From the NCBI GenBank assembly GCA_003056085.1, contig LSNK01000005.1, positions 76,122-112,305 of the forward strand: DNA of 36,184 bases, in the 5' to 3' direction. The notes under the pieces are model-generated. The model had not been told where the DNA came from. It did not search any database and was given only the letters and a program-made list of their open reading frames with translations. Source of the DNA: Parcubacteria group bacterium M6-OD1-1 (GTDB taxonomy: Bacteria > Patescibacteriota > Minisyncoccia > GWC2-36-17 > M10-OD1-4). Both the position numbers and the translations under genes were made by a program. Below are positions 7,011 to 26,914 of this stretch, in pieces; position 1 is the stretch's first letter; every line of letters begins with the position of its first letter.

Positions 7011-8945
7011 ATGATAATTGAAAAAAAGAAAGGGTTTTTAGACCCTAAAAAAAAGAAAGAAAATAAAGAAAACAAAAAAATAGAAAATAAAAAAAGCGCA
7101 AACAGCGCCACATTTAAGCATTCGGCAAAAAAGCATAATAAAAAAGAGACAAAAGTTTCAAGGAAAAAGATGTCTATGGGATCAAGGTATGCAGTAAAAT
7201 CAAGAAAAAGGATGATTCCCACAATAACTCACTTAAGAGATGACATTACTTTAGGCATAAAGCCAAGGAAAGTTTCAAAGGATCATGTCAGAGTTATTCC
7301 TATTGGCGGAGTAGAGGAGATAGGAAGAAATATGATAGCGGTTGAATATGGAAATGACATAATTATCATGGACGCGGGTTTAGAATTTCCAACAAGCGAC
7401 CATCCCGGAGTTGATTATCTTATTCCTAATGTAAGTTATTTAAAAAAATATAAACATCTAATAAGAGCTATAGTTATCAGTCATGGTCATTTGGATCATG
7501 TCGGCGCCTTGCCTTATGTTATAGAAGATCTTGGAAATCCTCCGATTTATACAACAGGGTTCACCGCTGCTCTTATTAAGAAAAAACACTCAGAGTTTAA
7601 ACATTTGCCGACTCCTAACATTATTCAAGTTAAAAAAGGAGATAGATTAAAAATCGGGAAAGAGGGAATGTTTTTCAGGTTTTTTGGGGTTGAGCATGCT
7701 ATTCCGGACTCCATCGGTACTATTTTAGAAACTAAATTCGGAGACATAGTTTATCCGGGGGATTTTAAAGTTGCAAGAGACAAAGATAATAATCCTGTTG
7801 AGGTTGAAGAGTATGAAGAAATGGGCAAAAAAGGTGTTTTGCTTCTTATTTTAGAGAGTACCAATATAGAAAAAGAAGGATTTTCAGGAACCGATGAAGA
7901 GGTTGCGGAAGGACTTGAGTCTGTATACGAAAAAGCAAAAGGAAGGATTATCACAGCCACATTTTCTTCTCAAATAGAAAGAGTTGTTGATATTGTTAAA
8001 ATATCAGAGAAATTAGGAAGAAAAGTAGCGGTTTTAGGATTCTCTTTAAAAACAAACCTTGAACTCGCAAAAGAATACAACATATTTGCTCCAAAAAAAG
8101 ATACTTTAATAGACATTAAAGATGTTGATAAATATCCGCAAAATAAAGTAATGATAATTTGTACAGGAGGACAAGGAGAGGAAAATTCCGCTTTGGTGAG
8201 AATTGTCAACAAAAGAGACAGAAATATAAAAATTCAAAAAGACGACACAGTTGTTCTTTCTTCTTCTATTGTTCCTGGGAATGAGAGACCTGTACAATAT
8301 TTAAAAGATAATTTAGCAAGACAGGGTGCAAAAGTAATTCATTACAAAATGGCAACTGTTCATGCCAGCGGGCACGCTTACAGAGAAGAAGTGGCTGTTT
8401 TGCATAAACTTGTTAAGCCCAAATTCTTTATACCTGTTCACGGTTTTTATTTTAATTTAGTAAGACACAAAGAACTTGCTATGGAGCTTGGCATGCCGGA
8501 AAAAAACATTGCCGTGCCGTTTTGCAACGGAACTATAATAAATCTTAATGATCAAAAAATAGAACAAATAAAAGATTCTATTCCCGCAAATTTTGTAACT
8601 GTTGACGGACTCGGTGTCGGGGATGTAAAAGAGGTTGTTCTGCGAGACAGAAATATTCTTGCGCAAGACGGAATTTTTGTTGTGTTTGCCGTAGTGGATG
8701 AAACAACAGGAAGAGTAAAGACGTCTCCGGATATAATTTCAAGAGGATTTATTTATCTAAGGGAATCTCAAGAGCTTCTTCATGAAGTTAGAAGAATAAT
8801 AAGATCTACAATTGAGGCAAATACAAAAATTCACCCCATAGATGTAGGATTTATAACTGAAGAGGTGAGAGAAGAAGTAGGAAAATTTTTGTTTCAACAC
8901 ACAAAAAGAAGACCGATGGTCTTACCTGTTATCGTTAGGGTTTAA
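7011..8945 (+). CDS. rnj: ribonuclease J with a Lys-rich N-terminal extension
   Basis: IPIGGVEEIGRNM, SHGHLDHVG, GDFK, HASGHA, PVHG and RRPMVLPVI motifs. Confidence 0.97.
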   Translation: MIIEKKKGFLDPKKKKENKENKKIENKKSANSATFKHSAKKHNKKETKVSRKKMSMGSRYAVKSRKRMIPTITHLRDDITLGIKPRKVSKDHVRVIPIGGVEEIGRNMIAVEYGNDIIIMDAGLEFPTSDHPGVDYLIPNVSYLKKYKHLIRAIVISHGHLDHVGALPYVIEDLGNPPIYTTGFTAALIKKKHSEFKHLPTPNIIQVKKGDRLKIGKEGMFFRFFGVEHAIPDSIGTILETKFGDIVYPGDFKVARDKDNNPVEVEEYEEMGKKGVLLLILESTNIEKEGFSGTDEEVAEGLESVYEKAKGRIITATFSSQIERVVDIVKISEKLGRKVAVLGFSLKTNLELAKEYNIFAPKKDTLIDIKDVDKYPQNKVMIICTGGQGEENSALVRIVNKRDRNIKIQKDDTVVLSSSIVPGNERPVQYLKDNLARQGAKVIHYKMATVHASGHAYREEVAVLHKLVKPKFFIPVHGFYFNLVRHKELAMELGMPEKNIAVPFCNGTIINLNDQKIEQIKDSIPANFVTVDGLGVGDVKEVVLRDRNILAQDGIFVVFAVVDETTGRVKTSPDIISRGFIYLRESQELLHEVRRIIRSTIEANTKIHPIDVGFITEEVREEVGKFLFQHTKRRPMVLPVIVRV

Positions 8946-8991
8946 AAAACAAAACTTGTTTTTTTTAAAAAATATGGTAATTTACAATTAT

Positions 8992-9022
8992 TGTTCTTTA
9001 ACATTTTAATACAACTGAGGAG
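8992..9022 (+). promoter_or_regulatory. boxA-like element and Shine-Dalgarno site
   Basis: TGTTCTTTAACA (11/12 match to boxA TGCTCTTTAACA); GAGGAG at 9017-9022. Confidence 0.6.
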
Positions 9023-9028
9023 AAGATT

Positions 9029-10021
9029 ATGAGTGCGGTAGTCAATAAAGGAAATAGATATGTAGATATTTCTGTTAGTAATAATGAAGAAATTATTAAA
9101 AATCCTGATTTGGAGAGTCATAATATTTCGTACTGGGTAACTTTTATTTACATTATTTTTGTTACTTTTGAAACTTTTTTAAGGAAATTTTTGCCTGCTG
9201 TAAAAAAAGATAATAAGGATGGAATTTTTAAAAATATTATTAGAATTACAGATCTTAAATTTAACTCTATTCTCTTTGATAAGCTAAGCGATTCTTTGAT
9301 GTTTCTAAGAAAGAATAAAGCTTCTTATGCTGCTTTGGACTTGGTTTATCATTGGAAATTCGGGGCAAATATTAAGAACAAAAAAAGAGGTTTAAAAAAA
9401 TTAATAGAAGACATAGCATTCAATTGTAAGGTGAGTATAGGTGTTCGTAATAGATTTGAAATTGTTAAATTTAGCTTACTCGAGAGTGTATTGATAAAAA
9501 AAAGAAAAAGAATAATATCAATCGCGGCTGGCTCTGGTGAGGCTGTAATCTTAGCTATAGCAAAAGCTAAAAAACAAGGTTACCATGTTGATGCTCTTTT
9601 TATAGATATGGATGAAAATGCTCTTTTTTATGCAAAAAATTTAGCAGAAAAATTTGAAGTTTCGAAAAATGTTACATTTTTACACAAGTCTATTTCAGAT
9701 TCTTTCAGAGATATAATTTTATTTAAGCCCGATTTAATTGAAATGACAGGGATTATTGATTATTTCTCAGATGAAAATTTGAAAAAATTTTTAAAGTTTA
9801 TTTGCAGGCAAAATGCTGATGTTTTAACCAGTAATGTAACAAAAAGACCAGGATTTATTAGTTTTGCCGAGAAGATGTTTTTAACAATAACGATAGACTG
9901 GCCAATGTTCTACAGGACAAGAGAAACATTGAGTCGTATTTTTGAAGAAGTTGGTTTTGATGCTAAATTTATCACAGAGCCAATGGGTATGTACACTGTT
10001 GTTTCTTGTGTTAAGAAATAG
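9029..10021 (+). CDS. class I SAM-dependent methyltransferase (PhcB/YnbC-C-terminal-like)
   Basis: GVRNR, IISIAAGSG (SAM motif I), FIDMD, DLIEMTGIIDYF and WPMFYRT motifs. Confidence 0.8.
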   Translation: MSAVVNKGNRYVDISVSNNEEIIKNPDLESHNISYWVTFIYIIFVTFETFLRKFLPAVKKDNKDGIFKNIIRITDLKFNSILFDKLSDSLMFLRKNKASYAALDLVYHWKFGANIKNKKRGLKKLIEDIAFNCKVSIGVRNRFEIVKFSLLESVLIKKRKRIISIAAGSGEAVILAIAKAKKQGYHVDALFIDMDENALFYAKNLAEKFEVSKNVTFLHKSISDSFRDIILFKPDLIEMTGIIDYFSDENLKKFLKFICRQNADVLTSNVTKRPGFISFAEKMFLTITIDWPMFYRTRETLSRIFEEVGFDAKFITEPMGMYTVVSCVKK

Positions 10022-10033
10022 ATAATCTTAAGG

Positions 10034-10066
10034 AGAAGTGATATAATAATATCACTTCTTTTTTTT
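10034..10066 (+). terminator. intrinsic terminator
   Basis: AGAAGTGATAT-aata-ATATCACTTCT followed by a T-tract. Confidence 0.8.
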
Positions 10067-10086
10067 GTACTAAAATAATTGTAATT

Positions 10087-11691
10087 ATGATAACCTACTA
10101 TTCAATATCAGCTGCAATAAATATAATAATTAGTGTTGTTCTTGCTGTTGTGGTGTTTTGGAGCGGAAATACAAAAATAAACAGATCTTTTGTATATTTT
10201 TCACTTAGTGTTGCTTTATGGAGCGTGGGTTATTTTTTTTGGCAGATATCTTCATATCAACAAGAGGCTTTATTCTGGACCCGTTTTCTTATGATGGGGG
10301 CAATTTTAATACCAGCTACTTATGCCCATTTTGTTTTCTCTTTTCTTAATATCTATGAGAAAAAGAAAAAGATTCTTTTTGTAAGTTATGTTGTAACTGT
10401 ATTTTTTGAAGTCTTTGTTTTTAGTAATTTGATTGTAAAAAATGTAAGCCCAATATTAGGGTTTGATTTTTGGCCTGTTCCAGGATATTTATTTCATCCA
10501 TTTTTATTTTTATGGATAATTTACACTGCGTATGTAACTTATATTCTTTTTAAAAAATATTTATTATATGTAAATTCAGAAAAAACACAAATAAAATATT
10601 TGTTATTAGGTTTATCCATGGGGTTTTTAGGGGGTGCCACAAATTATTTTTTATGGTACAACATACCAATTCCTCCTGTGGGAAATGCCTTTGTGGCTCT
10701 TTATGTCATATTTATATTTTACGCGATAGTAAAACACAGTCTTTTTGATATTAAGGTAATAATAGCTGAAGCTCTTGTTTTTTCATTGTGGATTATTTTA
10801 TCTGTAAAACTAATTTTTTTAAAATCATTATCCGACATATTAATAGAGTCGGCAGTTTTAATTTTATTTATATTTTTCGGGGTTCTTTTAATAAGAAGTG
10901 TATCAAGAGAAGTTAAAAGAAGGGAAGAAACAGAAAAATTAGTAAATGAATTAAAAAAGGCTAATGAGAAATTAAAACAGGTAGATGAACAAAAATCTGA
11001 ATTTATATCAATAGCATCTCATCAGCTGAGAACACCCTTAACAGCCATTAAGGGCTATACTTCAATGCTTATTGAAGGAACTTATGGCGAGGTGTCTGAT
11101 AAGGCAAAAGGTATTGTCAGTAAGATATTTCAATCAAGTCAGCGTTTGGTGTATATTGTAAATGATATGCTCGATGTTTCTCGAATAGAAGAAGGAAGAT
11201 TAAAGTATACTTTTGAGGATGTTAAGATTAATAATTTGGTAAAAGATGTAATTGGAGAGCTTAAAGTGAATGCTGATTTTAAAAAATTAAAATTTAATTT
11301 TAGTGCGGATTCTGAGAGTTTAGATGTTGTTATAAGCGCTGATTATGGAAAAATCAGACAAGCTATAATAAATATTATAGACAATTCAATTAAATATACC
11401 GAAGAGGGGTTTGTTTCGGTATCTCTTGAGATATCCAAAAATAAAAATAGTTTGATATTGAATATCAAGGACTCAGGTATAGGAATGACAAAAAATCAGT
11501 TAAAAACTATTTTTGAAAAATTTAAAAGATCAAAAAATGCCATAAAGATGCATACAGAAGGTTCCGGACTGGGGCTTTATGTTGCAAAAGAAATGATAAA
11601 AAGTAACAAAGGTGTTATTTGGGCAACATCAGACGGTTTAGGAAAAGGTTCACAGTTTTATATAGAATTTCCAATTAAAAAAGAAAAGTAA
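10087..11691 (+). CDS. sensor histidine kinase with an N-terminal multi-TM (HisKA_7TM-like) input domain
   Basis: about 9 hydrophobic segments; H-box SHQLRTPL; N-box DNSIKYT; DSGIG; GSGLGL. Confidence 0.93.
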   Translation: MITYYSISAAINIIISVVLAVVVFWSGNTKINRSFVYFSLSVALWSVGYFFWQISSYQQEALFWTRFLMMGAILIPATYAHFVFSFLNIYEKKKKILFVSYVVTVFFEVFVFSNLIVKNVSPILGFDFWPVPGYLFHPFLFLWIIYTAYVTYILFKKYLLYVNSEKTQIKYLLLGLSMGFLGGATNYFLWYNIPIPPVGNAFVALYVIFIFYAIVKHSLFDIKVIIAEALVFSLWIILSVKLIFLKSLSDILIESAVLILFIFFGVLLIRSVSREVKRREETEKLVNELKKANEKLKQVDEQKSEFISIASHQLRTPLTAIKGYTSMLIEGTYGEVSDKAKGIVSKIFQSSQRLVYIVNDMLDVSRIEEGRLKYTFEDVKINNLVKDVIGELKVNADFKKLKFNFSADSESLDVVISADYGKIRQAIINIIDNSIKYTEEGFVSVSLEISKNKNSLILNIKDSGIGMTKNQLKTIFEKFKRSKNAIKMHTEGSGLGLYVAKEMIKSNKGVIWATSDGLGKGSQFYIEFPIKKEK

Positions 11692-11700
11692 TAAATTGAT

Positions 11701-12186
11701 ATGAGCATTACTATTACAAAAAATGCTGAAGAAACAAAAAAATTTGCCTCTGACTTGGCAAAAGATTTATTAAATAAACCAAATAAAGAAAAAAATGCGG
11801 TTGTTTTGGCTTTAGAGGGAGTTTTAGGAGCGGGGAAAACAACTTTTACTCAAGGATTTGCTGAAGGCTTGGATATGAAAGAGGATATAACAAGTCCAAC
11901 TTTTGTAATTTTAAAAGAGTATAAAATAAAAGCAAAAAGTAAAAAGTCAAAAGTAAAAAGTCACGACAAATCACTCGAAAGGTTTTATCATATAGATTGT
12001 TACCGCTTAAAAGACGAAAGTGACTTGGACAGTATCGGGTTTTTTGAGATTTTAAAAGATCCAAAAAATATTATTTTAATAGAATGGGCGGGGAAAATAA
12101 AAAAAGCGTTGCCTAAAAAATACACAAGCATAAAATTTTATTATATTTCAGAAAATAAAAGAAAAATATCAATAAATCTGAATTGA
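11701..12186 (+). CDS. tsaE: tRNA threonylcarbamoyladenosine biosynthesis ATPase TsaE
   Basis: LGAGKTTF, SPTF, HIDCYRL and IEW motifs. Confidence 0.96.
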   Translation: MSITITKNAEETKKFASDLAKDLLNKPNKEKNAVVLALEGVLGAGKTTFTQGFAEGLDMKEDITSPTFVILKEYKIKAKSKKSKVKSHDKSLERFYHIDCYRLKDESDLDSIGFFEILKDPKNIILIEWAGKIKKALPKKYTSIKFYYISENKRKISINLN

Positions 12187-12217: not shown

Positions 12218-12418
12218 ATGAATAAATTAAAGCTGAAAATAAAACAAAAATCCAGTAATTTAGTTGTGGAAATGGATGCTGGCAGGTTTGAAAAATTAGC
12301 TGCCAGTTTTGGTATGTTTAATCCGGATTTTTTAAAAAGCGTCAAAAGAGCAGAGTCTGATTATAAAAAAGGACGTGTAAAAAAAATAAAGTCTTTAAAA
12401 GAACTCACAAAAAAATAA
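12218..12418 (+). CDS. putative antitoxin
   Basis: small ORF upstream of a RelE-like gene; C-terminal 'F.KSVKRAESDYKKGRV...L.EL' is typical of RelB/Phd-like antitoxin tails. Confidence 0.7.
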   Translation: MNKLKLKIKQKSSNLVVEMDAGRFEKLAASFGMFNPDFLKSVKRAESDYKKGRVKKIKSLKELTKK

Positions 12419-12422
12419 TTTT

Positions 12423-12701
12423 ATGATAGAGATTCTTATAGCGGAGGAGTTTGAAAAATTGTATATAAAACTTCCAATATCCATACAAAAAAAAGCTATA
12501 AAACAACAGGAATTGTTCTTAATAAATCCATTTTACACGTCTCTTAATACAGAAAAACTTGAACCCAAAGGAAAACAACTTTGGAGTTTTCGTATTAATA
12601 AAACCTATAGAATTGTTTTTCGTTTTGTTGATGGCAATAAAGTGCTTTCTCTTACAGTTGGTATGCATGATTGGATATATAAAATAGTCGGAAAATTTTA
12701 A
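12423..12701 (+). CDS. RelE/ParE-superfamily toxin
   Basis: F.K.Y.KLP, NPFY.SL.TEKL, WSFRIN..YRIVF and VG.HD..Y motifs. Confidence 0.88.
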   Translation: MIEILIAEEFEKLYIKLPISIQKKAIKQQELFLINPFYTSLNTEKLEPKGKQLWSFRINKTYRIVFRFVDGNKVLSLTVGMHDWIYKIVGKF

Positions 12702-12717
12702 AACTAAAAACAGCTAA

Positions 12718-15282
12718 ATGAAAAAAGAAAAATTAGTTATTATAGATTCAAATGCGTTGGTGCATAGGGCTTTCCATGCATTACCTCCTTTAAGCTCTCA
12801 AAAAGGAGAACTTACCAATGCAGTTTATGGTTTTACCAGTACGCTGATTAAAGTTATAAAAGAGATGAATCCGGACTATATGGTTGCATGTTTTGATCTT
12901 CCTGAGCCCACTTTCAGGCATAGGGAGTTTGAAGAATATAAGGCGCATAGACAAAAGACTCCGGAAGATTTAATTCCTCAGTTTAATAAGGTTAAAGAGG
13001 TTGTTCGCGCTTTTGATATTCCTATTTTTGAGAAGTCCGGTTTTGAAGCAGATGATCTTTTGGGGACAATAACAACTATTGTTAAAAAACAAAATCCAAA
13101 TATTCAGAGTATAATTTTAACGGGAGATTTAGACACGCTTCAATTGGTTAATGACAGTACGGTTGTTTATACTCTAAAAAAAGGAATAACAGACACGGTT
13201 ATTTATGATAAAAAGGCGATTTTTGAAAGATATGGACTCAAGCCTAACCAAATGACAGATTACAAAGGGTTGGTGGGGGATCCATCAGACAATATTCCCG
13301 GAGTTCCTGGGGTGGGAGCAAAAACAGCAAGCAAACTCCTTTTGGAATATAAAACATTAGAGGGGGTTTATGAGAACATCGCTTTGCTTCCGGAAAGAAA
13401 TAGAAAGAAGTTGGAGGAATATAAAGATCAGGCCTTTTTCTCAAAAAAATTAGCCACTATAAAAAAAGATGTTGATATTGATTTTAGTCTTTCAGATGCA
13501 AAGTTTGGAAACTATGATATGGACAAGGTAAAAAAGCTTTTTTTAGAGCTTAATTTTTTTACTTTGGCGTCAAGACTAAATTCAAAAGAAACAGAGAAAA
13601 AAAAACAAAAAGAATTAGAAAAAATAAAAATAGAGAATTTTAAAACAGAAGATTTAGAAAAAATAAAAAAAGCGGACCACATCGCAATATCTTTTTTAAA
13701 TGAAAAAATTTTAATTTGTTTTTCGGATAAATATTTTATTTCAGCTGAGCAGGAAGATATAAAAAATATTTTGGAGGATGAAAGTATAAAAAAAGTTGGT
13801 TTTAATCTTAAAAATACAATAAAAAAATTAAAAGAAAAAAATATAAATTTAAAAGGTGAGTATTTTGATGTTCAAATAGCAAGTTACCTCCTTGCGCCAG
13901 GGCTTAGAAGCTATGATCTTAAAAAAGTGATTTTTGAGCAGCTCGGAGATGATTTATCAGCAGATGAGGTTAAAGACAAAGAGGCGTATTTTTGTTTTTT
14001 AGTAAAAAATAAATTAGAAGAAAGACTTAAGCAAAACGATATTTTAAATATTTTCTTTGATATTGAAATGCCCCTTGTTCATATTTTAGCAAATATGGAG
14101 ATTGCGGGTATTGGTGTAAATTCTGAAAAGCTAAAAGATTTATCCAATGAGCTTGAAAAAAAATTAAATAATTTGAAAAAAGATATATACAAATTTGCAG
14201 GCAAAGAATTTAACATTAATTCTCCGTCGCAGCTGGGTCCAATATTGTTTGAGGACCTAAAAATTCAAGAAGACGCTAAAGTTAAAAAAACAAAAACAGG
14301 AGCTTATTCTACAAATGAAAGTGAGCTTGAAAAATTCAGAAAAAATCATAAAATAATAAAAGAGATTTTAGAATACAGAGAATTGTTTAAATTAAAAACC
14401 ACTTATTCAGATGCGTTGCCAAAGCTTATAAATAAAAAAACAAAAAAGATTCACACAACTTTCAATCAAACAGGAACAGCAACAGGCAGGCTTTCGTCTT
14501 CCGATCCAAATATGCAAAATATTCCTCAGGCAGGAGAATTTTCTTCTAAAATAAGAGAGGCTTTTGTAGCTGAAAAAAACTATAGTTTTGTTGCTTATGA
14601 TTATTCTCAAATTGAATTAAGAATAATAGCCCATCTTTCAGGAGATGAAAAAATGATTAAGATTTTTAAATCTGGAGGCGACATTCATACAGCAACCGCA
14701 ATGGAAATAAATAAAGTTTCTGAAGATGATGTTACAAAAAAAATGAGAAAAATGGCAAAAGTTTTGAATTTTGGAATCTTATTTGGTATGAGTGTTAAAG
14801 GTTTTTCAAACGCCGCTGAAGTTGATATGGATACGGCAAAAAAGTTTATGGAGGGTTATTTTGTTAATTTTCCAAAAGTTGCCGAATTTATTGATAAGAC
14901 TGTAAAATATGCAAAACAATATGGATATGTAAAAACAGAGCTTGGCAGAAAGCGCTGGCTCCCGGACTTAAAAAGTCCAAATTGGATTTTAAGAAATTCA
15001 GCGGAAAGAATGGCTCAAAATATGCCCGTTCAAGGATTTGAGGCTGACATATTAAAGCTCGCTATGATAAATGTAGATAAAAAATTTCTAAAAAATGAAA
15101 AAGATAATATAAGAATGATTATTCAGGTGCATGACGAATTAGTTTTTGAAATAAAAGATGATATAATCAAAGATGTAAAAGAGGAAATTAAATTAATTTT
15201 GGAGGATGTTTATCGCTTAAAAGTTCCTCTTACAGTTTCTGTTTTTGCCGGCAAAGATTGGGGTAATATGGAAAAAATATAA
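12718..15282 (+). CDS. polA: DNA polymerase I
   Basis: 5'-nuclease (HRAFHA, EADD, GDPSDNIPGV), TGRLSS.DPN.QNIP, DYSQIELR and VHDEL motifs. Confidence 0.98.
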   Translation: MKKEKLVIIDSNALVHRAFHALPPLSSQKGELTNAVYGFTSTLIKVIKEMNPDYMVACFDLPEPTFRHREFEEYKAHRQKTPEDLIPQFNKVKEVVRAFDIPIFEKSGFEADDLLGTITTIVKKQNPNIQSIILTGDLDTLQLVNDSTVVYTLKKGITDTVIYDKKAIFERYGLKPNQMTDYKGLVGDPSDNIPGVPGVGAKTASKLLLEYKTLEGVYENIALLPERNRKKLEEYKDQAFFSKKLATIKKDVDIDFSLSDAKFGNYDMDKVKKLFLELNFFTLASRLNSKETEKKKQKELEKIKIENFKTEDLEKIKKADHIAISFLNEKILICFSDKYFISAEQEDIKNILEDESIKKVGFNLKNTIKKLKEKNINLKGEYFDVQIASYLLAPGLRSYDLKKVIFEQLGDDLSADEVKDKEAYFCFLVKNKLEERLKQNDILNIFFDIEMPLVHILANMEIAGIGVNSEKLKDLSNELEKKLNNLKKDIYKFAGKEFNINSPSQLGPILFEDLKIQEDAKVKKTKTGAYSTNESELEKFRKNHKIIKEILEYRELFKLKTTYSDALPKLINKKTKKIHTTFNQTGTATGRLSSSDPNMQNIPQAGEFSSKIREAFVAEKNYSFVAYDYSQIELRIIAHLSGDEKMIKIFKSGGDIHTATAMEINKVSEDDVTKKMRKMAKVLNFGILFGMSVKGFSNAAEVDMDTAKKFMEGYFVNFPKVAEFIDKTVKYAKQYGYVKTELGRKRWLPDLKSPNWILRNSAERMAQNMPVQGFEADILKLAMINVDKKFLKNEKDNIRMIIQVHDELVFEIKDDIIKDVKEEIKLILEDVYRLKVPLTVSVFAGKDWGNMEKI

Positions 15283-15300: not shown

Positions 15301-16674
15301 ATGGAAGATAAAAAACAAAAAGAATTAAATAAGAAATTTTACTCTGTTTTATGGCGCAATCTTTCAGTCGTGTTGATTTTGGTTGTTATTTCCTTAGTTT
15401 TTTGGATATTTGCCTTTTTAAATAATATAGAAGAGAAGGTTTTATTTTTACTTGGATCGGGAGTCGTTGTATTTTTGGTAATGACAATTCTTATTATAAA
15501 AAACAGTATGGTTGTTGTCAGGCTTTTGAGAAAAATGGAAAATGAAAAAAAACAGACAGAGATAATAGTTTCAAACCTTATTAATGGAGTAATTCAATAT
15601 GACGCTAATTTTAAAATTCTCTTGATAAATCCTATGGCAGAAGAGATTTTAGGCGTTAAAAAAGATGATATTTTAAGAAAAAAAATCACCTCAGACACTT
15701 TAAAAGAAGATCCAAAATACGAATCTTTGGTAAAAGTTTTATACCCCGCTCTTGCAGAAGACTCCAATAAGATTTTAACAAAAGGAAATAAGCAAAAAAT
15801 ATTGGAAATGAAAATTTCAAAACCGAGAGAAACCGATATTCAGATTACAACTATTCCGCTCTCCAATGAGTCCGGAGATGCAGGAGGATATCTAAAAATA
15901 ATAAGAGATGTTTCAAGAGAAAAAGCAATATCAAAAACAAAATCAGAATTTATTTCAATAGCGGCTCATCAACTGAGAACCCCGCTTTCTGCCATTAAGT
16001 GGATTTTTAAAATGCTTATTGATGGAGATGTCGGAGAGCTTTCAAAAGATCAAAAAGATTTTTTGCAAAAAGGATATGATTCAAATGAAAGAATTATCCA
16101 GCTTGTCAGTGATATGTTAAATGTTGCAAGAATAGAAGAAGGCAGGTTTGGGTATGAATTTTATTTCGTAGACATGGAAGGATTAATAAGAAAAAGCATA
16201 GCCGGATTTGAGTTGAAAGCGGAGGAAAAGAAGATAGAAGTAACTTTTATTGATTTAAAAGAAAAAATTAATCCTATTAAAATTGATCCTGCGAAAATAG
16301 AGCTTGTTTTACAAAACCTTATAGATAATGCTTTAAAATATACTCCAAATGGAGGAAAGATTTTTATTAAATTAGAAAAGATAAATGATGACTTTATTGA
16401 AGTGAGTGTTAGAGATACGGGAGTCGGAGTGCCGGAAGATCAAAAAAACAGATTATTTTCTAAGTTTTTCAGAGGCTCAAATGTTATAAAAATGGAAACC
16501 GAAGGAACAGGTCTTGGATTATTTATAGTAAGAAATATTATTCAAAGACACGGAGGGAAAATTTGGGTGGAAACAAAAGATGAGGAGGGGACAACATTTT
16601 TATTTACACTTCCAATAAAAGAATCTCAAATACCGGAAGAAGAAAACAGTAAAAAAGATGATATTAATTTATAA
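15301..16674 (+). CDS. PAS-domain sensor histidine kinase
   Basis: 2 TM helices, PAS (INPMAEEILG), AHQLRTPL, DNALKYT and GTGLGL. Confidence 0.93.
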   Translation: MEDKKQKELNKKFYSVLWRNLSVVLILVVISLVFWIFAFLNNIEEKVLFLLGSGVVVFLVMTILIIKNSMVVVRLLRKMENEKKQTEIIVSNLINGVIQYDANFKILLINPMAEEILGVKKDDILRKKITSDTLKEDPKYESLVKVLYPALAEDSNKILTKGNKQKILEMKISKPRETDIQITTIPLSNESGDAGGYLKIIRDVSREKAISKTKSEFISIAAHQLRTPLSAIKWIFKMLIDGDVGELSKDQKDFLQKGYDSNERIIQLVSDMLNVARIEEGRFGYEFYFVDMEGLIRKSIAGFELKAEEKKIEVTFIDLKEKINPIKIDPAKIELVLQNLIDNALKYTPNGGKIFIKLEKINDDFIEVSVRDTGVGVPEDQKNRLFSKFFRGSNVIKMETEGTGLGLFIVRNIIQRHGGKIWVETKDEEGTTFLFTLPIKESQIPEEENSKKDDINL

Positions 16675-23395: not shown

Positions 23396-26300
23396 ATGGA
23401 CAAGAAAAATAACAAATCAAAAATAGCTCAAATGGAGGAGGATGTTTTGAGGTTTTGGAAAGACACAGATACATTCAGTAAGAGTTTAAAAAAAACAAAA
23501 AAAGGGAAACCTTTTGTTTTTTATGAAGGACCTCCAACAGCAAATGGAAGGCCGGGAATTCATCATGTTATTGCAAGGTGTTTTAAAGATATTTTTTTAA
23601 GGTACAAGTCAATGAACGGATTTTATGTTGAGAGAAAGGCAGGTTGGGACACTCATGGGCTTCCTGTTGAACTTGAGGTTGAAAAAAGACTTGGTATAAA
23701 GTCAAAACCGGAAATTGAAAAGTACGGAATAGAAAAATTTAATAAAGAATGCAAGAAGTCGGTTTGGACGTATAAAGACGAGTGGGAAAAAATGACGGAC
23801 AGAATGGGTTATTGGTTGGATATGGAAAATCCGTATGTGACGTATAAGTCTGACTATATGGAAACTCTTTGGTGGATTATCAAACAATTTTCAAATAAAA
23901 AACTTTTAACGGAAGATTATAAAGTTATACCTTTTTGTACTCGTTGTGGAACGGGCTTATCTTCTCATGAAGTGGCGCAGGGATATAAAACAATAAAGGA
24001 CAGGTCTGTATATGTGAAATTTAAATTTAAATTTCACAAAAATAAATTAGAAGATAAAGGTTTAAGCGAATATTTTTTGGTTTGGACAACAACCCCGTGG
24101 ACATTGCCTGCTAATGTAGCTCTTGCTGTAAATAAAGATCTTTTGTACGCAAGAGTAAAAGTAGAGAATGAAATTTTAATAATAGCAAAAGACAGAGTTA
24201 AAGATGTTTTGGGGGATGATGTCTATGTTTTGGGCTATATAAAAGGGAAGGATTTAGTCGGGCTTTTTTATGAACAGCTGCTTAGTTTTGCAACTCCAAA
24301 AGAAGATAAAAATGTTTTTTGTGTAGTTGAGGATGATTTTGTTTCTGCGTCCGATGGTTCCGGAGTTGTTCATATAGCGCCTGCTTACGGAGAGGATGAT
24401 ATGCGAGTGGCAAAGAAAAATAATTTGCCGGTTCTTAATGTTGTTAAAGAAACAGGAGAATTTAAAGACGAGGTGTATTTATGGAAAGATAAATTTGTTA
24501 AAGATACAGATATTGAAATAATTAAATTTTTGGAGGAAGAGGGAAAATTATTTAAAACTGAACTTTACGAACACGAGTATCCTTTTTGTTGGAGGTGTAA
24601 AACACCGCTTATTTATTTTGCAAGAAAATCATGGTTTGTAACAACAACTAAAGTTAAAAAAGAGATATTAGAAAATAATAAAACAGTTAACTGGGTTCCT
24701 TCTCATATAAAAGATGGAAGATTTGGAGAATGGTTAAAAGACAACAAAGACTGGGCTTTTTCAAGAGATAGATACTGGGGCACTCCTTTACCTGTTTGGA
24801 AATGTGAAAGTTGCGGGGAAAATGAAGTTTTAGGTTCTATTTCTGACATCTTAAAAAAGAGCAAGTTTAACAACCGGTATTTTATTATGCGTCATGGCGG
24901 AGCGGAATTTAATACAAAAGATATAATCGCGTCTTCAAATAAACATAAAAATAAATTAACAAAGAAAGGAATTTTTGATGTTAAAAAATCAGCGGAAAAA
25001 TTAAAAGATGTGGATGTTATCATTACTTCTCCTTTTGACAGAACTTTCAACACGGCGGAAATTATTGCAAAAGAGTTCGGTATTAAGAAAACAAATGTTA
25101 TAAAAGAGCCTTTGATTTCGGAGATAAACACAGGAGTTTTTGATGGTTGTCCGGTAAAAGATTATCATGCATTTTTTAATGAAGGAAAAGCTCCAAAAGG
25201 ATATAAAGAATATTTAAATTCTTTATTGCTCAAATTTGAGAAAAAACCTAAAAAGGGAGAAAATTTGAGAAATCTCAAAAAGCGTATGGTTCGCGCTGTT
25301 TTAAAAATAGAAAAAAAATACAAAGGAAAAAATATTCTCATAATAAGCCATGAGTATCCTTTATGGATATTAGAAACCGCTCTCATGGGGCTTAGCAACG
25401 AAGCGTCAGCAAAAAGAAAGGCAAAGATGAAGTCTCCCGATTATATAAAAACAGCAGAAGTTAGAAAAATAAAAACAGGCAAGCCTCCTTTAAACAAAGA
25501 TGGAGATTTAGACCTGCACAGACCGTATGTTGATGAAATAAAAATTGATTGCAAAAAATGTAAAAGTGAAATGACAAGAGTTCCAGAGGTTTGCGATGTT
25601 TGGTTTGACTCAGGTGCTATGCCGTTTGCGCAACTTCACTATCCTTTTGAAAATAAAAATAAAATAGATAAAAAAGAATTTTTCCCCGCAGATTATATTT
25701 CTGAAGCGGTGGATCAAACCAGAGGCTGGTTTTATACTTTACTTGCAATATCAACATTGCTTGGCTTTGAAGCGCCATACAAAAATGTTGTATCTTTGGG
25801 TCATATTTTAGATAAAAAAGGAAAAAAAATGTCCAAGTCTTTGGGTAATATTGTAAGCCCATGGGATGTTGCAGATAAGTACGGCATGGATGCTGTAAGA
25901 TGGTATTTTTATATAGCAAATTCTCCCGGTGAGCCAAAGAAATTTGATGAAAAAGATCTTGCCGGGTATCAAAGAAAACACATAATGGCTCTTTTAAATA
26001 CATTTAATTTTATTGGTTCATATATTGATTTAAATGAGGGGAAAAATAAAAAACAAGAATCCAAAAATATTTTAGATAAGTGGATTATATCAAGGTTAAA
26101 CGAGCTTGTTTTTACTGCAACTGATTATATGGAAAAATACAATCCTCAGTTTGCGGCAAGAGAGATAGCTTTGTTTGTTGATGATTTAACAAATTGGTAC
26201 ATCAGGAGGTCAAGAAGAAGGTTTCAATACAAAGAGGAGAATAGTAAGGATTTTATCCAAGCAAAAGATACTCTGCTTTTTGTTTTTTCCGAACTGCTTA

Positions 26301-26914
26301 AATTAACCGCTCCTTTTACACCATTTGTTGCAGATCATCTTTGGTTAAAGCTTTTAAATAAAAAGTCTGTACATTTGGAGGACTATCCAAAAATAAACAA
26401 AAAAAAGATTAACAAGAAAATATTGGAAAATATGAAAGAAGCAAGAAGTTTTGTTTCTGACGCACTCAAAAAAAGAGCAAAAGCCGGGATAAAAGTAAGA
26501 CAACCATTGCAAGAATTAAGAATTAAAAATCAAAAATTAAGCAAAGACTTTTTAGAATTAATAAAAGATGAAGTAAATGTAAAAAAGGTAATTCTTGATA
26601 AAAATATTAAAGAAAGTGTTAAACTTGATGTAAAAATCACAAAAGAACTAAAAGAAGAAGGCATGATGAGAGATTTAATAAGAAATATTCAGGGAGAAAG
26701 AAAAAATAAGGGACTCGTAAAAAGTGATTATATAAAAATTGAATTTGCGGAAACATCTTTTATTTCTAATCTTATAAAAAAATATAATAATCAAATAAAA
26801 TCAGAAACCGTTACAGAAAAAATAGAAATTATTTCAAAAAAAGAAGATATGACAGAAGCAAAAATAGGAGAAGAGATTGTTATGTTTAAAATAAGCGTCA
26901 AAAATACAAAGTAA
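23396..26914 (+). CDS. ileS: isoleucine--tRNA ligase (type 2) with an inserted histidine-phosphatase domain
   Basis: EGPPTANG.PGIHH, GWDTHGLP, WTTTPWTLP, DQTRGWF and KMSKS motifs; internal RHG domain. Confidence 0.97.
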   Translation: MDKKNNKSKIAQMEEDVLRFWKDTDTFSKSLKKTKKGKPFVFYEGPPTANGRPGIHHVIARCFKDIFLRYKSMNGFYVERKAGWDTHGLPVELEVEKRLGIKSKPEIEKYGIEKFNKECKKSVWTYKDEWEKMTDRMGYWLDMENPYVTYKSDYMETLWWIIKQFSNKKLLTEDYKVIPFCTRCGTGLSSHEVAQGYKTIKDRSVYVKFKFKFHKNKLEDKGLSEYFLVWTTTPWTLPANVALAVNKDLLYARVKVENEILIIAKDRVKDVLGDDVYVLGYIKGKDLVGLFYEQLLSFATPKEDKNVFCVVEDDFVSASDGSGVVHIAPAYGEDDMRVAKKNNLPVLNVVKETGEFKDEVYLWKDKFVKDTDIEIIKFLEEEGKLFKTELYEHEYPFCWRCKTPLIYFARKSWFVTTTKVKKEILENNKTVNWVPSHIKDGRFGEWLKDNKDWAFSRDRYWGTPLPVWKCESCGENEVLGSISDILKKSKFNNRYFIMRHGGAEFNTKDIIASSNKHKNKLTKKGIFDVKKSAEKLKDVDVIITSPFDRTFNTAEIIAKEFGIKKTNVIKEPLISEINTGVFDGCPVKDYHAFFNEGKAPKGYKEYLNSLLLKFEKKPKKGENLRNLKKRMVRAVLKIEKKYKGKNILIISHEYPLWILETALMGLSNEASAKRKAKMKSPDYIKTAEVRKIKTGKPPLNKDGDLDLHRPYVDEIKIDCKKCKSEMTRVPEVCDVWFDSGAMPFAQLHYPFENKNKIDKKEFFPADYISEAVDQTRGWFYTLLAISTLLGFEAPYKNVVSLGHILDKKGKKMSKSLGNIVSPWDVADKYGMDAVRWYFYIANSPGEPKKFDEKDLAGYQRKHIMALLNTFNFIGSYIDLNEGKNKKQESKNILDKWIISRLNELVFTATDYMEKYNPQFAAREIALFVDDLTNWYIRRSRRRFQYKEENSKDFIQAKDTLLFVFSELLKLTAPFTPFVADHLWLKLLNKKSVHLEDYPKINKKKINKKILENMKEARSFVSDALKKRAKAGIKVRQPLQELRIKNQKLSKDFLELIKDEVNVKKVILDKNIKESVKLDVKITKELKEEGMMRDLIRNIQGERKNKGLVKSDYIKIEFAETSFISNLIKKYNNQIKSETVTEKIEIISKKEDMTEAKIGEEIVMFKISVKNTK

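Follow-up and report, generated by a model that had tools for sequence, protein, structure and literature searches.

We analyzed a stretch of 36,184 nucleotides (the window) from the genome of Parcubacteria group bacterium M6-OD1-1, in which a gene for an S-adenosylmethionine (SAM)-dependent methyltransferase is directly followed, on the same strand, by a gene for a sensor histidine kinase with a membrane input domain of the HisKA_7TM (seven-transmembrane, 7TM) type. The two genes were found together far more often than expected by chance and, judged from sequence comparisons, the sensor domain of the kinase tracks the upstream enzyme, whereas its catalytic core tracks the organism. From enzyme family, fold, neighboring genes and domain history we predict, with a probability of about one half, that the pair is a unit of a lipid-type enzyme and a matched intramembrane sensor that acts on a scavenged acyl or lipid-like compound.

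The window comes from contig 3 of a six-contig genome, which is rated 97% complete and, with 766 kb, has a size typical of Patescibacteria. The closest named relatives of its proteins are from Candidatus Azambacteria and other Parcubacteria-type metagenome-assembled genomes (MAGs). A first-pass annotation had placed a block of two genes at 9029–11691 between rnj and tsaE, and exactly there both open reading frames (ORFs), 9029–10021 and 10087–11691, were recovered on the plus strand. It had also reported the window to be free of response regulators; a Pfam scan of the window ORFs likewise found no receiver domain, and the five Response_reg matches of the genome all lie outside the window.

Linkage of the methyltransferase and kinase genes

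For gene linkage we surveyed 401 sampled genomes from the class to which the window belongs, counting matches to the enzyme family profile at E ≤ 1e-10. The enzyme was present in 24 of the 401 genomes, at 26 places. For 24 of these 26 places the neighborhoods were fetched, ORFs were called with our own script and neighbors were scanned with Pfam; G093 was left out. At 22 of the 26 places a HisKA_7TM gene lay directly downstream on the same strand, 21 times by Pfam, including the window, and once (G191) by coordinates. The downstream kinase in G001 is cut by the contig end to a 94-residue fragment, which still scored 28.7 bits and is too short for assignment to a sensor type; the enzyme place in G320 stops at a contig end. 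Two weak matches, in L069 (second copy) and L072, belong to another type of gene cluster (see below).

A survey of one genome per species, with a 21-row alignment as query, yielded 80 loci, 11 of which were contigs already in the class sample. Here, a 7TM kinase stood at position +1 on the same strand in 70 of the 80 loci. Nine loci without a kinase at +1 were labeled as Deltaproteobacteria (three), Thiotrichaceae (two), Dehalococcoidales, Smithellaceae and one member of the Patescibacteria, plus L100, where the kinase is at +3 behind an acyltransferase. HisKA_7TM matches occurred in 227 of the 401 class genomes (about 298 matches, in genomes of roughly 0.5–1.3 Mb), from which we estimate that the downstream neighbor of a random gene is a 7TM kinase about once or twice per thousand. 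The observed linkage is therefore far above chance, and the neighborhood surveys agree with the first-pass proposal that enzyme and sensor belong together.

The genes around the pair vary from locus to locus, and the pair itself recurs in several candidate phyla and, within the class, in many families. Dependence is one-sided: in Patescibacteria the enzyme hardly ever occurs without the kinase, but most 7TM kinases have no such enzyme. A homologue search for longer proteins found no methyltransferase–kinase fusion of at least 687 residues, which is weak evidence of absence. In the literature we found no publication that describes this pairing, and likewise none that names PF12147.

Several loci from different MAGs (L105/L106, L125/L126 and L078/L081) agreed fully or almost fully in their ORF lengths and E-values. 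One such pair is labeled Saccharibacteria and Pseudobdellovibrionaceae, respectively, and in L105/L106 ORF lengths and E-values are identical under different labels. The taxon assigned to some of these MAGs is probably incorrect.

The methyltransferase

In Pfam, the product of the first gene scored 26.4 bits with Methyltransf_31 (cut-off 27) and 16.4 bits with Methyltransf_20 (PF12147, cut-off 21), i.e., it was below threshold for both, and NCBIfam gave no specific name (best E 1.3e-4, far under cut-off). A word-indexed protein search returned three proteins, whereas an exhaustive HMMER search returned 612 cluster representatives at E ≤ 0.001, 269 of them at E ≤ 1e-10. Methyltransf_20 was matched by 73 of 82 aligned relatives at E ≤ 0.001. 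With hhalign, the family profile aligned to residues 346–582 of Escherichia coli YnbC with a probability of 98.7% (E 1.6e-16) over 226 columns that include the cap motifs; YnbC is the archetype of PF12147 and scores 508 bits with it. A language-model atlas gave only Methyltransf_20-type clusters, from several phyla, and a tblastn search of plasmids with the YnbC domain gave 31 records, all of them YnbC-like.

The protein has a hydrophobic N-terminal helix (residues ~33–59), a helical cap and a Rossmann core. Its AlphaFold model (pLDDT 91.5) has helices in residues 35–156 and alternating strands and helices from residue 161. In the alignment of 82 sequences, R140, N141, R142, S164, G168, S169, G241, D244, Y245, W291, M293, Y295 and R296 were invariant or nearly so. 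The four motifs named by the first-pass annotation were all found, and all of them fall on conserved family columns (Table 1).

A Foldseek search with the enzyme model had 3ocj as best match (E 8.8e-11, TM-scores 0.60/0.65), followed by BchU, MppJ, SgvM, MmcR, DnrK and PhzM, which are small-molecule O- or C-methyltransferases; no protein methyltransferase was among the matches listed. The predicted fold hence resembles small-molecule methyltransferases and not RNA or protein ones. Based on profile comparison and the structural model, the window enzyme is a class I SAM methyltransferase of the YnbC/Methyltransf_20 group with a small-molecule-like fold, and its initial assignment from motifs to this group is borne out by its relatives and by the alignment to YnbC.

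The kinase and its membrane sensor

All three Pfam domains of the kinase were above their cut-offs, i.e., HisKA_7TM (PF16927) with 47.8 bits (cut-off 28.6), HisKA with 67.8 bits and HATPase_c with 79 bits. A nine-helix membrane input is followed by a long signaling helix, HisKA and HATPase_c. A hydropathy scan found nine segments within residues 7–267. The AlphaFold model of the sensor (pLDDT 92.2) contains nine helices (residues 4–26, 30–53, 58–86, 91–109, 136–160, 164–190, 200–218, 222–243 and 248–289) and one short β-hairpin (residues 117–132), with no large loop. As the first-pass annotation had described it, the input region is thus predicted to consist wholly of membrane helices and to lack a large extracellular domain.

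Foldseek found no match to the sensor model in the PDB at E ≤ 0.001. The best E was 0.015, for weak matches to bundles resembling G-protein-coupled receptors, a likeness that we do not take for homology. The literature that names HisKA_7TM consisted of reviews or censuses that deal with kinases of archaea and eukaryotes, and described no ligand for this domain.

Different affinities of sensor domain and catalytic core

We compared the window with G003, a genome of the same genus that is 91% complete. G003 has no match to the enzyme, which is absent from two same-genus genomes, but the order of rnj, kinase, tsaE, polA and a second kinase is kept. Between rnj and the kinase, G003 carries genes for a DoxX protein, an acyltransferase, an acyl-CoA dehydrogenase of 820 residues and an NAD_binding_4 reductase, and its kinase has a different 7TM type. 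Orthologues flanking the kinase share 64–83% identity between both genomes. Within the kinase, identity is 22–42% in residues 1–200, 45–58% in residues 201–280 and 55–80% in residues 281–520. In BLAST searches, the kinase core had its best match in G003 (67%), followed by a genome of the same order. For the 7TM region, the best matches were instead enzyme-linked kinases from other lineages (45%), and G003 ranked 34th.

Trees of both kinase halves gave the same contrast. On a 7TM tree of 110 kinases the label "methyltransferase upstream" required 7 changes (shuffled mean 34.2; none of 500 shuffles as low), versus 21 changes on the catalytic-core tree (shuffled mean 34.1); kinases with and without the enzyme had been sampled by different routes, and both trees contained the same rows. 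In a subset of 32 rows, the label required 4 changes on the 7TM tree (0/500 shuffles as low) and 11 on the core tree (402/500 as low). The core tree placed the window kinase as sister to G003 with a support of 98–99. For the 32 rows, the approximately unbiased (AU) test rejected grouping the window 7TM region with its kin (p 0.0075) as well as grouping the window core with its 7TM neighbors (p 6e-47). An exclusive core clade of the window, G003 and G017 was not rejected (AU p 0.088); the free tree adds two rows of the same order.

In these comparisons, the sensor domain tracks the upstream enzyme and the catalytic core tracks the organism. A cassette of the enzyme plus the sensor domain has putatively been swapped as a unit onto a resident kinase core (Table 1); alternatively, the sensor of one lineage may have diverged faster. 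The contribution of this window is to show the contrast of sensor and core for two genomes of one genus.

The first-pass annotation had also suggested a check for congruent trees. In a mirror-tree analysis of methyltransferase-linked pairs, enzyme distances correlated with those of both kinase halves (7TM, r 0.28; core, r 0.37; 0/2000 permutations as high in each case), with no excess for the 7TM half. Fine-scale co-evolution of enzyme and sensor is thus not supported by this analysis.

The spacer between the two genes

A terminator-like hairpin and an overlapping promoter-like sequence lie between the methyltransferase and kinase genes (Table 1). A pattern scan found 5 terminator-like sites versus 0.7 expected. 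The spacer hairpin folds with −15.9 kcal/mol (z −4.1; none of 200 shuffles as good). Among 71 pairs, enzyme–kinase spacing was bimodal, with 43 spacers of at most 20 nucleotides, none of 21–44 nucleotides and 28 of at least 45 nucleotides. Of the long spacers, 25/28 folded far better than mononucleotide shuffles (z ≤ −2), and several were followed by T runs. The window spacer (10022–10086) belongs to this long, structured class. Structured spacers are a recurrent RNA element among the related loci L076–L155, and the hairpin may terminate, attenuate or stabilize the upstream message.

Lipid-type enzymes in the neighborhood

A PlsC-type acyltransferase gene lay at most four genes away in 27 of the 80 loci of the species survey, mostly directly upstream and on the same strand, and four proteins (L113, L116, L122 and P0096) are fusions of such an acyltransferase with the methyltransferase. 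An α/β-hydrolase is fused to the methyltransferase in P0152, as in YnbC, and is encoded at −1 in four loci. Stand-alone receivers were found at most four genes away in 7/80 loci, and radical SAM genes also in seven. The remaining recurrent neighbors were housekeeping genes, and no recurrent exporter gene was among the neighbors surveyed.

As a control, we took 40 class kinases without the enzyme from the high-scoring HisKA_7TM matches. An acyltransferase was encoded at −1 to −3 in 12/40, and an unassigned Rossmann-type gene of about 384 residues was upstream in 14/40. Some control kinases had another class I methyltransferase (Methyltransf_11 type) upstream, and three of the 40 a FeeM or autoinducer-synthase-like gene (28.9 and 25.3 bits, barely over the cut-offs). 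The slot before these kinases thus habitually holds acyl-modifying enzymes, of which the methyltransferase described here is one kind.

Some individual loci stood out. In L156, L160 and L178 a gene of about 210 residues with borderline matches to FeeM (N-acyl amino acid synthase) and Autoind_synth is directly upstream of the kinase and adjoins an acyltransferase or methyltransferase gene; L178, although in the control set, carries a weak match to the enzyme family. In L057, which comes from a genome of the same class, a FadL/TodX-type outer-membrane transporter homologue (8147–9358, minus strand; Toluene_X, 126 bits) is directly upstream of the methyltransferase, and a receiver and a radical SAM gene follow the kinase. 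The lineage of L057 is thought to have no outer membrane, which makes a transporter of this type odd there. L119 and L127, both labeled Thiotrichaceae, have no kinase; their methyltransferase stands behind genes for a transporter of the MMPL/RND type, which includes a sterol-sensing-like domain, and for a DUF1302-like protein. Weaker relatives of the enzyme with no adjoining kinase are encoded in L069 (second copy, 12825–13652) and L072 (4085–4942), within a cluster of a PP-binding carrier protein, an NAD_binding_4 reductase and a class II aminoacyl-tRNA-synthetase-like gene. This cluster is possibly a carrier-protein-based small-molecule pathway.

In the genome of the window itself we found no matches for ketoacyl synthase, PP-binding (acyl carrier protein, ACP) or PF01553 (PlsC-type acyltransferase). 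Any acyl substrate must therefore be scavenged, and the missing ketoacyl synthase and ACP matches fit the first-pass statement that such cells generally lack fatty-acid synthesis and that the enzyme might act on a substrate from the host. The window holds the minimal two-gene form of the module. An orphan receiver on contig 5 was the best match to receivers beside related pairs (39–40% identity), but other receivers scored nearly as well, and we therefore name none of them as the partner.

Comparison with known systems

The Phc system is the closest parallel that the first-pass annotation had drawn. According to publications on Phc, PhcB is a class I SAM-dependent methyltransferase, phcB lies directly upstream of the sensor kinase gene phcS, and PhcS responds to the hydrophobic methyl 3-hydroxy fatty acid that PhcB makes; PhcR and PhcQ, from the same operon, are receiver-only regulators without DNA-binding domains (PMC11960443, PMC8578825, PMC6989110, PMC6580516). 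The window resembles this layout in that its methyltransferase gene is immediately followed, on the same strand, by the gene of a membrane sensor kinase, a likeness of gene arrangement. It differs from Phc in lacking a receiver gene and a LysR-type output, and it also differs in the hairpin between the genes and in a genome without fatty-acid synthesis to feed the enzyme. Moreover, the enzyme of Patescibacteria is often joined to acyltransferases, which we did not find reported for Phc.

With E. coli YnbC, the window enzyme shares a homologous methyltransferase domain, and both families occur in the context of lipid enzymes. YnbC, however, is fused to an α/β-hydrolase and encoded beside phospholipid-head-group enzymes with no sensor kinase, whereas the window protein has no fusion partner, carries a hydrophobic helix near its N-terminus and remains under the Pfam cut-off. 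YnbC is not known to have an assigned substrate, and none was reported among the literature matches listed. The best fold match, 3ocj, is a "possible exported protein" from Bordetella parapertussis with 14% identity to the enzyme; a sequence profile also links the two (E 2e-4).

DesK, LytS-type 5TM, CqsS/LqsS and AgrC are kinases of intramembrane sensing or of hydrophobic ligands, in which a membrane-helix input with short loops is followed by a signaling helix and the core. The window kinase has the same order, with an input of membrane helices only; unlike these kinases, its HisKA_7TM domain has nine helices and a conserved short β-hairpin.

Possible functions of the pair

In the function that we favor, a membrane-associated enzyme of the YnbC/Methyltransf_20 type would methylate an acyl or lipid-like compound, which a cell without fatty-acid synthesis would obtain from its host or surroundings. 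With its nine-helix input, the adjacent kinase would sense this product or the precursor within the membrane and would then transfer phosphate to a stand-alone receiver encoded elsewhere. The substrate class, the binding of the product by the kinase and the biological purpose are what we infer here; the purpose may be a self-made signal, the sensing of host lipids or feedback on lipid modification. With this, the first-pass idea of a signaling circuit stands in part. It is consistent with the conserved enzyme–sensor unit, the YnbC-type enzyme and the small-molecule fold, but the hairpin speaks against a simple operon, and most 7TM kinases of the class have no enzyme.

Several further points weigh against this prediction. 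The window methyltransferase is under the gathering cut-off of PF12147 (16.4 versus 21 bits), and a six-frame search of the whole genome with PF12147 gave zero matches. The strong terminator-like hairpin means that the two window genes need not be co-transcribed. As the genome has no acyltransferase, it lacks the lipid enzymes that accompany the pair in other genomes. Kinases of the 7TM type occur in 227/401 genomes, compared with 24/401 for the enzyme, i.e., they are mostly enzyme-free and often stand behind other acyl-modifying enzymes, which argues against a dedicated synthase–receptor pair in general. Since the mirror-tree correlation was no higher for the 7TM region than for the core, the match of enzyme and sensor is one at the level of types, and we dropped the idea of fine-scale co-evolution. 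The surveyed loci are related by descent and not independent, some MAG labels are doubtful, and the species survey used our own ORF calls and our own hidden Markov models built from the class survey. The trees were quick LG+G4 trees, and the groups for the AU tests were set by kinship after a first tree had been seen.

A bolder version of the prediction, which we regard as tentative, is that Patescibacteria carry interchangeable cassettes of one or more acyl-modifying enzymes with a matched sensor of seven to nine helices. Such cassettes would recombine onto a resident kinase core and would make and read methylated acyl signals from host-scavenged lipid. Possible cassette enzymes, named with the same reserve, are Methyltransf_20-like or other methyltransferases, PlsC-type acyltransferases, FeeM/LuxI-like N-acyl synthases and a reductase with an acyl-CoA dehydrogenase. 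Rather unlikely, but to be taken seriously, is membrane-lipid remodeling, in which the enzyme would modify bulk scavenged lipid, the kinase would sense membrane thickness, packing or charge, and the genes would lie together for co-regulation. DesK-type kinases do sense physical membrane properties, and PlsC-type acyltransferases are phospholipid-building enzymes. The latter accompany the methyltransferase or are fused to it, and acyltransferases also precede 12 of the 40 control kinases. YnbC belongs to the ynbABCD operon with a CDP-alcohol phosphatidyltransferase and a CDP-diglyceride synthase (CDP, cytidine diphosphate), and both the lack of a recurrent exporter among the surveyed neighbors and the abundance of 7TM kinases without the enzyme fit remodeling. 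A general membrane sensor should, however, keep its membrane domain when the enzyme before it is replaced, but the 7TM type goes with the enzyme (7 versus 21 changes), and in the same-genus comparison it is the window sensor that deviates and not the core; the genome moreover lacks an acyltransferase for lipid building.

Quorum sensing of the Phc type, for which the enzyme would be a PhcB homologue making a diffusible fatty-acid methyl ester that is read in a density-dependent manner by a PhcS-like kinase, appears unlikely to us. Gene order and orientation are those of phcB–phcS as given in the publications cited above, the enzyme has a small-molecule methyltransferase fold, the sensor is intramembrane, and the stand-alone receivers near 7/80 loci recall the PhcR/PhcQ-type regulators described there. 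But with neither ketoacyl synthase nor ACP, an own supply of the 3-hydroxy fatty-acid precursor is improbable, the window encodes no receiver, the two genes have a terminator-like hairpin between them, and density signaling in an epibiont with few neighbors is itself an assumption. Methylation of the kinase or another protein in the manner of CheR, which would adapt the sensor, might explain the tight, nearly obligate adjacency, and 4 of the 82 relatives had weak matches to the CheR SAM domain. We consider it very improbable because the window protein had no CheR match, the CheR N-terminal domain was found neither in it nor in the 82 relatives, and the best structural matches were small-molecule enzymes, with no protein methyltransferase among those listed; the family also occurs without kinases, beside lipid transporters, or fused to acyltransferases or hydrolases. 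Shared descent of the loci, the housekeeping flanks and the hairpin in the window would finally be compatible with an inherited gene order and an unrelated housekeeping role of the enzyme. This already disfavored explanation is the least probable one, as the pair persists across families and candidate phyla while all other neighbors change, and the enzyme in Patescibacteria is almost never without the kinase. Its patchy distribution (24/401 genomes; absent from two same-genus genomes) also fits a housekeeping role poorly.

Other features of the window

The positions of the module and its flanks are compiled in Table 1.

Table 1. Positions of the methyltransferase–kinase module, its motifs and domains, and flanking genes in the window.
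Feature	Position	Strand	Basis and remarks
SAM-dependent methyltransferase, 330 residues, YnbC/Methyltransf_20-like	9029..10021	+	ORF; Pfam (sub-threshold); hhalign; AlphaFold; Foldseek
GVRNR motif in helical cap, residues 138–142	9440..9454	+	R142 invariant in family; aligns with YnbC GIRQR
IAAGSG, glycine-rich SAM-binding motif I, residues 165–170	9521..9538	+	G168 invariant
GIIDYF motif, residues 241–246	9749..9766	+	G241, D244, Y245 conserved
WPMFYRT motif, residues 291–297	9899..9919	+	W291 invariant; aligns with YnbC WVMRVRS
Promoter-like TAGATA-17-TATAAT with TG, overlapping the hairpin	10019–10047	+	Pattern scan
Terminator-like hairpin (15-pair stem, 4-nucleotide loop) followed by T run, between the two genes	10030..10068	+	Pattern scan; RNA folding
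Sensor histidine kinase HisKA_7TM, 534 residues	10087..11691	+	ORF; Pfam; hydropathy; AlphaFold
Membrane sensor region, residues 1–290	10087..10956	+	AlphaFold; Pfam HisKA_7TM (residues 13–222); hydropathy
HisKA dimerization and phospho-acceptor domain, residues 302–370	10990..11196	+	Pfam
H312, H-box histidine	11020–11022	+	Invariant in 40 kinases
HATPase_c catalytic domain, residues 419–531	11341..11679	+	Pfam
Putative exchanged cassette: methyltransferase and roughly residues 1–200 of the kinase	8946..10690	+	Contrast with G003; boundaries approximate
RNase J (rnj), flank outside the module	7011..8945	+	Pfam; 83% identity to G003
TsaE, flank outside the module	11701..12186	+	Pfam; 69% identity to G003

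A second orphan histidine kinase of 457 residues (15301–16674, plus strand; PAS, HisKA, HATPase_c) is encoded right after polA. Its orthologue in G003 has 717 residues with a long extra N-terminal region, and both share 64% identity over 413 residues. Both kinases of this neighborhood hence differ in their input parts between the window and G003.

Between tsaE and polA, the window contains an ORF of 66 residues and one of 92 residues for a HigB/RelE-like toxin (12218–12701, plus strand). In G003, polA follows tsaE with no ORF of at least 80 residues in between. By sequence, this segment looks like a small toxin–antitoxin insertion. Further downstream (23396–26914, plus strand), a class I aminoacyl-tRNA synthetase of 1172 residues (tRNA-synt_1 in two stretches, Anticodon_1) has a His_Phos_1 histidine-phosphatase domain (residues 496–673) inserted between its catalytic halves.

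Implications

The lifestyle of the ultra-small Patescibacteria is one of attachment to other cells, and to our knowledge almost nothing has been learned about what they sense. If the predicted function is correct, the pair would provide the first ligand class for the widespread HisKA_7TM input and the first function for the Methyltransf_20/YnbC family. Moreover, as a single enzyme is tied to a single membrane sensor, a heterologous host would allow the enzyme, its product and the receptor to be studied in one system. The comparison of the window with G003 suggests how new signal–sensor pairs arise by recombination and offers a ready design for chimeras. Should the tentative proposal of exchangeable cassettes hold, the window and G003 would be a natural domain-swap pair, i.e., two cassettes on one kinase core. 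The signals would then act between epibiont cells or between epibiont and host, and would represent the first small-molecule communication system known in the phylum.

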